A stretch of DNA of 63,688 nucleotides, counting the filler, from Globobulimina sp. (lineage: Eukaryota), in NCBI GenBank assembly GCA_003354225.1. It is 48 parts of 48 records of this genome, joined end to end, with 100 filler letters (N's around TTAATTAATTAA, not from the genome) between each part and the next. Parts side by side here need not be neighbours in the genome. Positions count along the whole stretch, not along the records: positions 42,539 to 43,767 come from PIVH01020535.1; 47 more parts are not named here. The stretch is one strand, 5' to 3'. Numbering within the stretch: the stretch's first letter is position 1; the number at the start of each line of letters is the position of its first letter. A program made the translations under genes and the position numbers. Under the pieces are notes generated by a model, which was not told the DNA's origin, ran no database searches, and saw only the letters and a list, made by a program, of their open reading frames with translations. Shown here in pieces: positions 40,810 to 45,096 of this stretch.

Positions 40810-41109
40810 ATGGATACAAAGCAGTTGGTCGGTCTACGAATTAAAAAGATTCGCAATTATAAAAGACTCACTCAAGAAAAACTTGCGGAGCTGGCGGGCA
40901 TAAACCCAAAATATTTAAGTAGTATTGAAAGAGGCAAAGAAAATCCTACATTGGATATTGTATTAAAATTAGCTAAATCCTTGGACGTATCCTCAGGAGA
41001 TATTTTTGAAAGCCCTGATATCAATGATCCAGAAAAAATAAAATTCATGGTAGACACTCTCATAAAAAGAGCTGATGAAGAACAATTGAGAATTATTTAT
41101 CAAATTCTG
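40810..41109 (+). CDS. XRE/Cro-C1 HTH transcriptional regulator (3' partial)
   Basis: GLRIKKIR...LTQEKLAELAGINPKYLSSIERGKENPTL. Confidence 0.95.
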
Positions 41110-41902: not shown

Positions 41903-42438
41903 ATGGCAGAAGCTGCCACACACAAATTCGTAAATGGCACGAACGTACCACAAGATGTCTATAATTATCCGAATGAGACTGTATTCGGTCACACAGTCAT
42001 AACGAAAAAGATTAAGACAGCAGCAAATAAAGGACATTTATCAAATGATACCGTCGCTGCTATAGCGGCGATGATAAAAACGTTTCTCATCAACCCATAT
42101 GGAAATAGCAAGGGAATTGATTGCGACCTTCAAGACATGGCCGATGCATTCAAACGAGCCACAAATTATGAAGAAGCACACCCCGATCATGTATTCCCTG
42201 ACCACAACGATTTAGTCCAATTAACAGAAAATGATGTTTGGTTCACAGAGTCGGTGCCAGTACGACGACAAACTAAATGGGATGAGAGGAAAACTGAGTT
42301 TAATACTGATGCGATTATCAACGCATGGAAATTCCCAGAACCTCCATCCGCTGAACCCTTAATTGATCCAAGAGATGAAGCATCATCAACTGATGCAGAA
42401 GAAATCGATGGGCGAATCGATGAGGAAATCGAGATAGA
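41903..42438 (+). CDS. Intronless hypothetical protein (possibly ORF1 of a mobile element)
   Basis: ORF after a long structured leader. Confidence 0.5.
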
Positions 42439-42538: not shown

Positions 42539-43537
42539 AAAGAGAATAAAAAAAAGAAAACAAAGAAATACGCCGGGCAGTGCATCGCCGATAATTATGG
42601 TTTTTGTCTTATCTGTTTAGAAAAATCCATTTTGCAGTTTAAATCGCCCAAATATGTGATTGAGACATTAATCCATCAAATGATTCATAGCTACATCTTA
42701 ACCAAACATGGCGCAAAATCATTTGCAGCAAAACAGAAACAAGAAACCATTGGACACTCCGCCGAATTTAAGCAAATAATGATGCAAATCAATAAGAAAT
42801 CGCATCCATTCATCAAATTAACACTTAATAATAAGCAATGTAAACAAAATGATGATTATCCTTCGGAAATCATTCCAAATCAGTTGTATTTAGGCAATAT
42901 TCATCACGCCCTCAACCTACAGACTTTAAAAGGTTTAAAAATATCGCATGTGGTCAACTGTACGCAATCCATAATAGATAAATTTGAGGACGCCGGCATT
43001 ATTTATTGCAGAGTGCCGGTGAATGACAAAACCTCTGTGTCCATTTTGCCATATTTTGTGAAAGCAATTCGATTTATTGAGGCTGTGCGAGACAAGAATA
43101 GCAATAATAAGATATTAATACATTGTCATGCGGGCATATCGCGTTCGGCCACCATAACCATCGCATATTTGATGTATTCGTGGAAGTTAACTATGTTCGA
43201 CGCGATAACCCACGTTCAATCCAAGCGGTATATAATTCAACCAAACCAAGGCTTCAAGAACCAATTATTAGACTTTTATTTGTATTTGGAAGAGAATGAA
43301 GGCAATTTAGACGATTTTGAGAAAAAAAATCAAATAAAAACGAAAAATCAAATAAAAACTTCGTGTCCATTGCCGATATGTATTGGACAGAATGATGAGA
43401 ATCAAAATAAAAATATCAATGGAAACAAGTCAAACCAGAAAGAAAAGGATAAGGAATATGTTGCATGTCCTGTTTGCGATAAGTTTTTTACCACAAAATA
43501 TATCAATAAACATTTGGATGAATGTGTTTCGCATTAA
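42539..43537 (+). CDS. SprT/Spartan-like domain + dual-specificity phosphatase + UBZ4 zinc finger fusion (5' partial)
   Basis: YAGQC...FCLICL...ETLIHQMIHSY...GHSAEF...INK; LYLGN, VPVND, IHCHAGISRSAT, IQPNQGF; CPVC...INKHLDEC. Confidence 0.88.
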   Translation, partial: KENKKKKTKKYAGQCIADNYGFCLICLEKSILQFKSPKYVIETLIHQMIHSYILTKHGAKSFAAKQKQETIGHSAEFKQIMMQINKKSHPFIKLTLNNKQCKQNDDYPSEIIPNQLYLGNIHHALNLQTLKGLKISHVVNCTQSIIDKFEDAGIIYCRVPVNDKTSVSILPYFVKAIRFIEAVRDKNSNNKILIHCHAGISRSATITIAYLMYSWKLTMFDAITHVQSKRYIIQPNQGFKNQLLDFYLYLEENEGNLDDFEKKNQIKTKNQIKTSCPLPICIGQNDENQNKNINGNKSNQKEKDKEYVACPVCDKFFTTKYINKHLDECVSH

Positions 43538-43867
43538 ATTATATATATTTTGTACTAGTACTTTTCATTTATTTTTTATTATTTGTTGATTAATTAATAT
43601 TATTTTATCATTTTTAAGTATCAAGTTATTTCGTTGTAAACTTTTTCCCCTCAATGTACTTTCTATTCATCTGTAAGTTAACGTTATACATTATTTTGTT
43701 AAATTACACCTTTTTTCGTTTGTTTACTTCGAGTTATTTTCTCTTTTTTTTTTGATGCTAATTTAAANNNNNNNNNNNNNNNNNNNNNNNNNNNNNNNNN
43801 NNNNNNNNNNNTTAATTAATTAANNNNNNNNNNNNNNNNNNNNNNNNNNNNNNNNNNNNNNNNNNNN

Positions 43868-45096
43868 TAAATTACAATTAAATGTCAACAGCAACAGAAT
43901 TAGAGGACGAGATATGTGATTTGGTCGATAATTTAGGCTCAGAGAAACCATTTCCAAAACAAAAAAGAAGAACATCATATCCAAATTCTTCACTATCTGT
44001 ATCCGTATCTTCATCAATATCATACACAAACGATTCAGTATCATCATCACTAACTCAATTAACACCATCTGAATTGACAATTATTGTTACAAATATATTT
44101 GAAAATAATGAATCATTTCTAAAATTTAAATCAGAGATAGGTTTAATACAAAATGAATTTGTTGAACAAAAGATATGCGGTGAATATTTAACTACATATA
44201 CACGACCTGCATTTTGTAAAAAATTAGTAAATATAAAAAAAGGAATTTCAGCAAAAATATATAAACAATTAAAATCGATGAGTGATTTTGAAATACAACA
44301 AATATTAAATATAAATGCGCATAATGTTGGAGTGGGAGGATCAGAGTCCAGTCACTCTGGGGAATCAAAAACGAATTCAGATGGAAATGATATGAAAACA
44401 CAAATACGTATACCGTCGGATATTAATCATATTGCCAAATTACCCAAATATTGCAGCCCCATTGGCCTCATTAATAAAAAAAATATAGAAAATTATGATA
44501 AAAATGAATTCATTACATATTCTTATTTAATACTTACAAAAAATAAATATAACAAACTGGATATTGATACTTTAATGAATGGATTAATTAAATTAGAATT
44601 GACAGCAAAAGCATTCACTTGTACTAAACGTAAAGATTTTTGTAAAAGCTTAAAGAAATATGATATTTTAGCAGCAAAAGCAGCAAAAATTTATACATTA
44701 ATTCAAAAATCAATACAAGAAAATATAAAATTTGATAATTTAAAATTTAGCAATAATAATAATAGCAAGACATTAAATTGCACGGAAATTTCATTGATTG
44801 CAGTTACAGATTTTACAGTTTGTGCTCATAAAATGATAAAATCAATGAATGAATCAATGAAATTAAATAATGTGAGCGGTAAATCCATGGTTCAATGTTA
44901 TTTAAAAAAACACGATTTAGAGAAATATGTGGAGACAAATGTCAGACGCAGATCAGCAATGTATTTAACTGATATGTTATGGACTGATCACAAAAATGAT
45001 GAAAATAAATTATTTGTTATTAATGAATATGACAGAAAGAAACTATTAAAATATTTTATATCGTTATATATGAGTTATATAAAAAATGTTATTATT
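43868..45096 (+). CDS. Hypothetical protein with two SAM-like helical repeats
   Basis: TRPAFCKKL..KKGISAKIYKQL and KRKDFCKSL..LAAKAAKIYTLI. Confidence 0.55.

Follow-up and report, generated by a model that had tools for sequence, protein, structure and literature searches.

A foraminiferal protein family joining a Spartan-type subdomain without its catalytic glutamate to a dual-specificity phosphatase and a UBZ4-type zinc finger

Spartan (SPRTN) is an intensively studied, essential protease of DNA-protein-crosslink repair. In this study, we analysed a window of 63,688 nt from Globobulimina sp. (GenBank assembly GCA_003354225.1), by which we mean the whole stretch of DNA, and identified a gene whose product joins a Spartan-type metalloprotease subdomain lacking the catalytic glutamate to a dual-specificity phosphatase (DSP) of the mitogen-activated protein (MAP) kinase phosphatase (MKP) type and a C-terminal UBZ4-type zinc finger. 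This fusion gene is located on contig PIVH01020535.1 at positions 42539–43767 (1229 bp, 31% G+C). Since the window is composed of 48 unrelated contigs of 1228–1230 bp each, ordered by size and separated by spacers of the form N44-TTAATTAATTAA-N44, no genomic neighborhood can be read around the gene; the G+C content of the contigs ranges from 0.26 to 0.50, which probably reflects an assembly mixed from a eukaryote and bacteria. A search of other sequences revealed 20 related proteins with the same architecture, and we regard the architecture and the pseudo-protease status of the family as nearly certain.

For human SPRTN, a section of PMC9240642 maps a metalloprotease subdomain to residues 26/45–166, a zinc-binding subdomain to residues 167–212/214, and a basic region to residues 220–230, followed by a VCP motif (253–261), a PIP box (325–332), and a RAD18-like UBZ (456–475). 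Ubiquitin reading by the protease domain together with the UBZ was reported only in 2025, and according to PMC12279946 and PMC12277127, the SprT domain carries a ubiquitin-binding face (Leu38, Leu99) in addition to the UBZ.

The open reading frame of the fusion gene comprises 332 codons followed by TAA (42539..43537, + strand). Since the contig begins at position 42539, the 5' end of the frame is cut off by the contig edge, and homologues carry 73–110 further N-terminal residues. Thus, of the uninterrupted frame claimed in a preliminary description of this DNA, the 332 open codons and the stop codon stood, while the N-terminus proved to be missing. Based on Pfam, an N-terminally truncated SprT-like subdomain (PF10263; 42551..42802, +) was assigned to residues 5–88 of the window protein (E 2.2e-10, 40.8 bits with a cut-off of 25.6, profile positions 26–99 of 108), and the same match was obtained in 13 of 13 family members. 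Comparison of the first 102 residues with solved chains resulted in human Spartan only, i.e., 6mdw (E 2.8e-5) and 6mdx, with ETLIHQMIHSY aligned on ETLLHEMIHAY and GHSAEF on GHGPEF. Residues 1–165 of the full-length homologue P0005 also matched only 6mdw (E 2.4e-13) and 6mdx among solved sequences, the match to 6mdw being split into two collinear stretches with an inserted loop between them. For a comparison at the level of the fold, an AlphaFold model of P0005 (372 residues; mean predicted local distance difference test score 75.4, predicted template-modelling score 0.55) was compared with 48,161 representative solved chains. The best match was MKP-2 (Z 20.1), and 6mdx was the sole non-phosphatase among the best 50 entries (Z 15.6, root-mean-square deviation 2.6 Å, 119 aligned residues, 31% identity, chain residues 28–161). 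The Spartan-type nature previously proposed for the N-terminal part was therefore recovered by sequence as well as by fold.

In place of the HExxH motif of Spartan, the window protein harbors H-Q-M-I-H (42674..42688, +; codons CAT CAA ATG ATT CAT), in which the Gln codon CAA at 42677–42679 aligns with the Glu of H-E-M-I-H in human Spartan. The third zinc-ligand His was located by alignment in G-H-S (42752..42760, +) and corresponds to the His of Spartan G-H-G. A Gln codon next to three retained zinc His had already been noted for this single sequence, and the pattern holds throughout the family: of 17 sequences that extend over the catalytic residue, 12 carry Gln, five His, and none Glu. In a 13-row alignment (A2), the zinc ligands HxxxH and GH were invariant wherever rows have residues, as were M, I, and Y of HxMIHxY. 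On the family tree, a minimum of two changes between Gln and His has to be assumed, as there is a well-supported His subclade and, in addition, P0006 within the Gln clade. The catalytic position thus drifts between two non-acidic residues while the flanking residues stay frozen, and the fusion protein lacks the HExxH with catalytic Glu that marks Spartan. Editing and the use of an alternative genetic code were both rejected as explanations of the Gln, since CAA encodes Gln and the contigs of four sequencing runs agree on it; to our knowledge, CAA is read as Gln in every genetic code.

The invariance of the zinc triad and of the helix around it, together with His at the Glu position in five of 17 sequences, could also be explained by a bifunctional enzyme, whose zinc site still hydrolyses a peptide or other bond via Gln/His or a water network. 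However, SPRTN E112Q and E112A are described as inactive in self-cleavage and rescue assays in the relevant section of PMC9240642, two or more switches between Gln and His fit poorly to a conserved catalytic base, and the zinc-binding subdomain that aids substrate cleavage by SPRTN is lost in the family, so that we consider such a second activity very improbable.

At the opposite end of the protein, a UBZ4-type ubiquitin-binding zinc finger was identified (CPVC-x11-H-LDE-C; 43466..43525, +). The best solved chains for the last 35 residues were the UBZ of RAD18 (2mre, E 2.6e-4), the UBZ of WRNIP1 (3vhs, E 3.5e-4), and again RAD18 (5vf0), all of which have CPVC...IN-HLD-C in common with the window finger. 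The UBZ4 assignment of the preliminary description is upheld by these matches, and only its spacing (CPVC-x8-NKHLDEC) had to be corrected to nine residues, i.e., C-x2-C-x11-H-x3-C. Pfam detected the window finger weakly (zf-C2HC_2, E 0.022; zf-WRNIP1_ubi, E 0.053), and zf-WRNIP1_ubi was found in four of 13 members at E<=0.1 with a best value of 7.8e-5. The pattern C-x2-C-x11-H-x3-C with an Asp two residues after the His is present in 15 of 21 family sequences (the 20 relatives and the window protein), the other six being truncated or ending early, and the C, C, H, D, and C of the finger were invariant in alignment A2 wherever rows have residues.

The finger is connected to the phosphatase by a conserved acidic helix (LEENEGNLDDFEKK) and a subsequent variable low-complexity linker (together 43277..43465, +). 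Within the linker, a perfect 18-nt tandem duplication was observed at 43325–43359 (KNQIKT twice), and a relative found in one sequencing run (X6, see below) displays in-frame indels near this duplication, at 43350–43360, 43427, and 43445. Despite its variability, the linker contains a recurrent element, a short C-(x)-L-P-(Y/I) motif that may serve in docking: it reads CPLPICI in the window protein (43364–43384, residues 276–282), CLPIGS in P0003, SLPAVQ in Ammonia, and CLPY[TA]Q in members of the His subclade.

The junction that joins the SprT subdomain to the phosphatase (IKLTLNNKQCKQNDD; 42812..42856, +) is situated where the zinc-binding subdomain of Spartan would begin. The junction NNKQC-x2-NDD-x-PSEIIP is nearly invariant, with N97, N98, K99, Q100, C101, N104, D105, and D106 as invariant columns. 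Only about 34 residues separate G-H-S from the start of the phosphatase, no Cys/His cluster was detected in this interval in any of 16 members, and 6mdx is matched by the fold no further than chain residue 161. The family thus retains the metalloprotease subdomain of Spartan only, and the zinc-binding DNA subdomain (aa 167–214) is absent. Simple patterns for PIP, SHP, and APIM motifs, which degenerate forms would escape, gave no hit in 16 members; the PIP is also described as less conserved between species in the section of PMC9240642 cited above. The phosphatase had been regarded as inserted into a Spartan protein, which is correct insofar as it lies in the middle of the protein, though it takes the place of the zinc-binding subdomain and is no simple insertion.

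The phosphatase itself extends over 42857..43276 (+) and was identified by Pfam as DSPc (PF00782; residues 116–246, E 3e-34, 118 bits with a cut-off of 33.5). Its general-acid Asp codon is located at 43025–43027 (+) and the P-loop HCHAGISRS at 43121–43147 (+), and the Asp, Cys, and Arg were invariant in alignment A2 wherever rows have residues, in agreement with the intact phosphatase expected from the single sequence. By sequence, the matching solved chains were DUSP6/9/10 at E 1e-25, and Foldseek resulted in MKP5 (E 1.8e-10). Pfam matches to 'Tc-R-P' and related entries were rejected as a toxin signal, since they are weaker overlapping matches to the same phosphatase fold. No Rhodanese match was found by Pfam in the window protein or in the full-length P0005. 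Outside the family, P0129 (Nonionella stella) and P0016 (Bolivina argentea) come closest; the latter carries Rhodanese and DSPc, and the Rhodanese match of P0129 reached 20.9 bits, just under the Pfam cut-off of 22.2. In a phosphatase tree built from the best 90 of 253 phosphatase domains by score, the fusion family formed one clade (SH-aLRT 99) with P0129, P0016, and P0188 as its weakly supported sister (SH-aLRT 80). The simplest history is that a Spartan gene was fused with the catalytic half of an MKP gene in Foraminifera or their ancestors. A different combination was seen in P0058 (288 residues), a match of our protein search in which a ubiquitin-family domain (PF00240) precedes a dual-specificity phosphatase; this protein is unrelated to the fusion family.

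With MKP catalytic domains (DUSP6/9/10, MKP-2, MKP5) as the best solved matches, two foraminiferal proteins as nearest non-family relatives in the sister group, and the SprT part in the position taken by rhodanese in MKPs, the protein might essentially be a MAP kinase phosphatase. In that case, the dead SprT part would stand in for rhodanese as a docking or regulatory module, and the UBZ4 finger would only influence how stable the protein is or where it is located, without any tie to ubiquitylated chromatin or to damaged DNA. A mere spacer or docking part, however, needs neither the conserved zinc triad nor the junction or the UBZ4 finger, both ubiquitin-related parts of Spartan were retained, and no conserved Φ-x-Φ docking pattern follows the basic cluster in the N-terminal part as judged by eye. 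On balance, we consider this explanation rather unlikely.

The basic cluster mentioned is the Lys-rich end (KENKKKKTKK; 42539..42568, +) of a low-complexity loop that is inserted in the SprT domain compared to human Spartan. The insert between the VKW and YAG strands ranges from 25 to 52 residues in the 15 members in which it was measurable, and six to eight K/R among the 12 residues before the YAG strand were counted in 16 of 16 members. The Lys-rich loop may be a patch for nuclear localisation or nucleic-acid binding. A kinase D-motif in this loop was also considered and rejected because of the lack of a conserved Φ-x-Φ.

Conservation of the basic loop in all 16 members, descent from a crosslink-repair enzyme, and the occurrence of RNA and polynucleotide phosphatases within the protein tyrosine phosphatase fold (1yn9, 4mbb, and 2c46, lower in our fold list) could point to a phosphatase directed at nucleic acids, which at DNA lesions would remove terminal phosphates or process phosphotyrosyl protein-DNA remnants. 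Yet the phosphatase groups with the protein-directed MKPs and not with the RNA-phosphatase branch, the DNA-binding zinc subdomain of Spartan is absent, and Cys-phosphatases of the DSP type hydrolyse monoesters. Such a role therefore appears highly improbable, and slightly more so than a second, zinc-dependent activity.

To determine the distribution of the family, the window protein was used as query in a search of 5.8 billion proteins, which resulted in 123 matches among 1012 candidates. The top 12 clusters share the architecture (274–507 bits, 55–77% identity), followed by a match of 144 bits to the phosphatase only. With the alignment as query, 14 family clusters were obtained before scores fell to 175 bits, and a profile search of 1.84 billion representatives revealed four family clusters (647, 526, 517, and 324 bits) and then a fall to 167 bits. 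A hidden Markov model of the SprT part matched 19 of 268 proteins, all of them belonging to the family, and none of the 146 other top phosphatase matches. Cluster look-ups add near-identical members to the 20 relatives, whose named sources are Ammonia sp. (MMETSP1384), Bolivina argentea, and Nonionella stella. Nonionella belongs to the order Rotaliida of the Foraminifera, and Ammonia and Bolivina are foraminifera as well. To date, the family is limited to a lineage that has received little study. None of the listed family clusters is from UniRef or nr, and NCBI contributes just one member, P0013, a fragment whose 201 residues comprise the SprT part alone; the fusion is therefore unlikely to appear in a UniProt-based architecture catalogue. 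A word-index search with the SprT part of P0003 (residues 25–205) resulted in six family members and no ordinary SPRTN, the index being too insensitive to indicate absence. Among metagenome contigs, 188 pattern matches were obtained, none of which was confirmed as a related locus, and in the ESM Atlas the whole protein had no usable match and the N-terminal part gave generic SprT-like clusters only.

Family members are 372–496 residues long. Mean pairwise identity amounted to 64% in the N-terminal part of SprT, 62% in the SprT core, 84% in the phosphatase, and 69% in the finger, compared to 37% in the inserted loop and 27% in the linker. As identity in the SprT part is far above that of the linkers, the dead protease part is under clear constraint; the SprT, phosphatase, and finger parts are all under purifying selection. 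Some predictions showed irregularities: those of P0012 and P0013 turn to nonsense or stop in mid-domain, in P0012 after NRIL, just before the P-loop, a pattern suggestive of gene prediction having read into introns on genomic contigs. The window contig, by contrast, is uninterrupted across 999 nt. P0009 and P0124, labelled Bolivina argentea and Nonionella stella, are nearly identical and fall into one 90%-identity cluster, which could be due to very recent divergence or to cross-contamination of the data sets.

Given that the assembly is fragmented and mixed, that the contigs of the window are very short, and that the frame is incomplete, the gene could in theory be an artefact, i.e., either a chimera from assembly or amplification or a pseudogene in decay. 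A word-index search of sequencing runs revealed nine matching runs from four studies, no RNA run being listed among them, and four runs were compared: X1 and X2 (study P1), X5 (study P2), and X6 (study P3). In X1, a single contig covers 42578–43763 with five differences, and in X2 a single contig covers 42539–43650 with four differences and extends about 210 nt further upstream of 42539. X5 yielded many short contigs, one of which (42760–42875) bridges the junction of SprT and phosphatase. X6 harbors a relative of about 95% identity on two contigs (42539–43178, with 199 nt more upstream, and 43154–43568). Accordingly, the SprT-DSP junction is bridged by contigs of X1, X2, X5, and X6 and that of DSP and UBZ by contigs of X1, X2, and X6. 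X1 and X2 possibly stem from the window's own sample and are thus not independent; X5 and X6 come from other studies. Neither joints nor another letter at 42677–42679 were reported in the contigs of the four runs. A GAA at 42677 or missing coverage of the junction, either of which would have spoken against the preliminary description, was not encountered in these contigs. Among the listed differences, the X6 relative differs in 33 codons, 29 of which are synonymous and four conservative (L24R, K86R, D185E, and T268A), with eight further differences outside this set; its indels are confined to the low-complexity linker and sum to multiples of three. The prediction that the gene is no amplification chimera is thus supported by junction-spanning contigs from three studies and by the identical, collinear architecture of the 20 other sequences, which derive from transcriptomes and assemblies of several sources. 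Together with 332 codons without a stop and a ratio of 29 synonymous to four non-synonymous changes in the listed set, this leaves an artefact a negligible chance. A single discrepancy was noted at position 42609, where the window has T and all four runs have G, changing codon 24 from CTT (Leu) to CGT (Arg), with mostly Cys in the homologues; either a variant or an error in assembling the window contig may account for this.

Altogether, a SPRTN-derived protein with its protease switched off and joined to a phosphatase, as initially suggested, is supported by the Spartan match, the lack of Glu in all 17 sequences, and the intact DSP. Taken as a whole, we somewhat favor a real, conserved foraminiferal family derived from Spartan that acts as a ubiquitin-directed phosphatase on a dead Spartan scaffold; for the proposed ubiquitin-directed mechanism, the chances seem evenly balanced. 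According to this mechanism, the protein would have given up proteolysis and would act as a phosphatase guided to its substrates by what is left of Spartan. [quoted passage not shown] The inactive cleft, presumably still holding zinc, may accommodate a flexible substrate segment and thereby form a peptide groove beside the phosphatase, whose catalytic Cys would remove phosphate from Ser, Thr, or Tyr of the docked target or of a bound partner. With residues numbered from HEMIH = 111–115 in HMMER alignments, the equivalent of Leu38 is L, I, or V in 11 of 11 members covering the position, and that of Leu99 is mostly Phe, with Thr or Ile taking its place in the His subclade. Hydrophobic residues at these positions are suggestive of a retained ubiquitin face, though no proof of it. 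Of the ubiquitin- or crosslink-directed targeting put forward earlier, the ubiquitin part is the better supported one, the crosslink part being weakened by the loss of the DNA-sensing subdomain. More specifically, the dead zinc cleft, the SprT ubiquitin face, and the UBZ4 finger might together recognise polyubiquitylated chromatin or crosslinked proteins for the MKP-type phosphatase and so couple ubiquitin to dephosphorylation, a proposal we put forward tentatively and with the balance leaning against it. If true, ubiquitin marks would be directly coupled to dephosphorylation in a foraminiferal response to DNA damage or replication stress.

Several points weigh against a ubiquitin-directed phosphatase. 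The equivalent of Leu99 is not Leu, the N-terminal stretch by which Leu38 was placed aligns weakly on its own (i-E 2.1), and the window finger reaches no Pfam gathering score. Without the DNA-sensing subdomain of Spartan, targeting to DNA or crosslinks has no direct support, and the MKP type of the phosphatase together with its rhodanese-MKP relatives points to MAP kinases at least as much as to chromatin. The His found at the catalytic position in five of 17 sequences could in principle act as a base, and the template-modelling score of the P0005 model (0.55) is too low to fix the arrangement of the domains.

Downstream of the stop codon, AT-rich 3' untranslated or flanking sequence extends to the contig end (43538..43767, +). 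A six-frame pattern search of the whole window revealed no HExxH...GH motif and no ubiquitin. On another contig, a bacterial-looking HTH_3 regulator of the Cro/C1 type was identified at 40810–41109 (E 1e-14), which is unlinked to the fusion gene, and long open frames at 41903–42436 (178 residues) and 43882–45096 (405 residues; contig with 26% G+C) showed no Pfam match at E<=0.01.

In the full-text literature, no published description of an SprT/DSP/UBZ4 architecture was found, InterPro and CDART lying outside this search, and literature matches to 'DUSP' concerned a domain of that name in USP11. The combination, for which the preliminary description likewise knew of no precedent, has thus apparently not been described before. 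A lineage that kept the reading parts of Spartan under purifying selection, dropped catalysis, and added another enzyme represents a natural separation-of-function experiment, and the family would demonstrate that the scaffold of Spartan is in itself useful for targeting. It would also be a metalloprotease-derived addition to the pseudoenzymes and a new way to aim a dual-specificity phosphatase. For foraminifera, with their unusual nuclear biology and barely annotated genomes, it offers a lineage-specific marker gene as well as a testable biochemical prediction, and its members are small enough for expression and assay.

In comparison with known systems, the family resembles human Spartan (6mdw, 6mdx) in its metalloprotease subdomain by sequence and fold, in the zinc ligands HxxxH and G-H, in a RAD18-like UBZ finger at the extreme C-terminus, and in hydrophobic residues at both positions of the ubiquitin-binding face. 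It differs from Spartan in Gln or His instead of the catalytic Glu, in the missing zinc-binding subdomain, in the MKP-type phosphatase in the middle of the protein, and in the basic low-complexity loop of 25–52 residues within the SprT subdomain. The UBZ4 finger and the match to 6mdx favor a descent of the SprT part from SPRTN rather than from GCNA/ACRC or another SprT-like branch. The laboratory variants SPRTN E112Q and E112A are similar in that a Spartan-type domain retains the zinc His without the Glu, a state which is here natural, conserved, and embedded in another architecture. With the MKPs (DUSP10/MKP5, DUSP4/MKP-2, DUSP6, and DUSP9), the phosphatase shares an HCxxGxSRS P-loop, the general-acid Asp, and an AYLM motif, its identity to their catalytic domains being 37–50%; while those are defined as a subgroup by an N-terminal rhodanese/CH2 domain with a kinase-interaction motif, the fusion proteins have a dead Spartan subdomain before the phosphatase and a UBZ4 finger after it. 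This finger corresponds to the UBZ4 of RAD18 (2mre, 5vf0) and WRNIP1 (3vhs) in CPVC-x11-H-L-D-x-C including the Asp after H-L, though here it is joined to a phosphatase and its ubiquitin binding is a prediction. The family is thus partly Spartan-like, in its putative targeting, and partly MKP-like, in its chemistry, and a full member of neither group.

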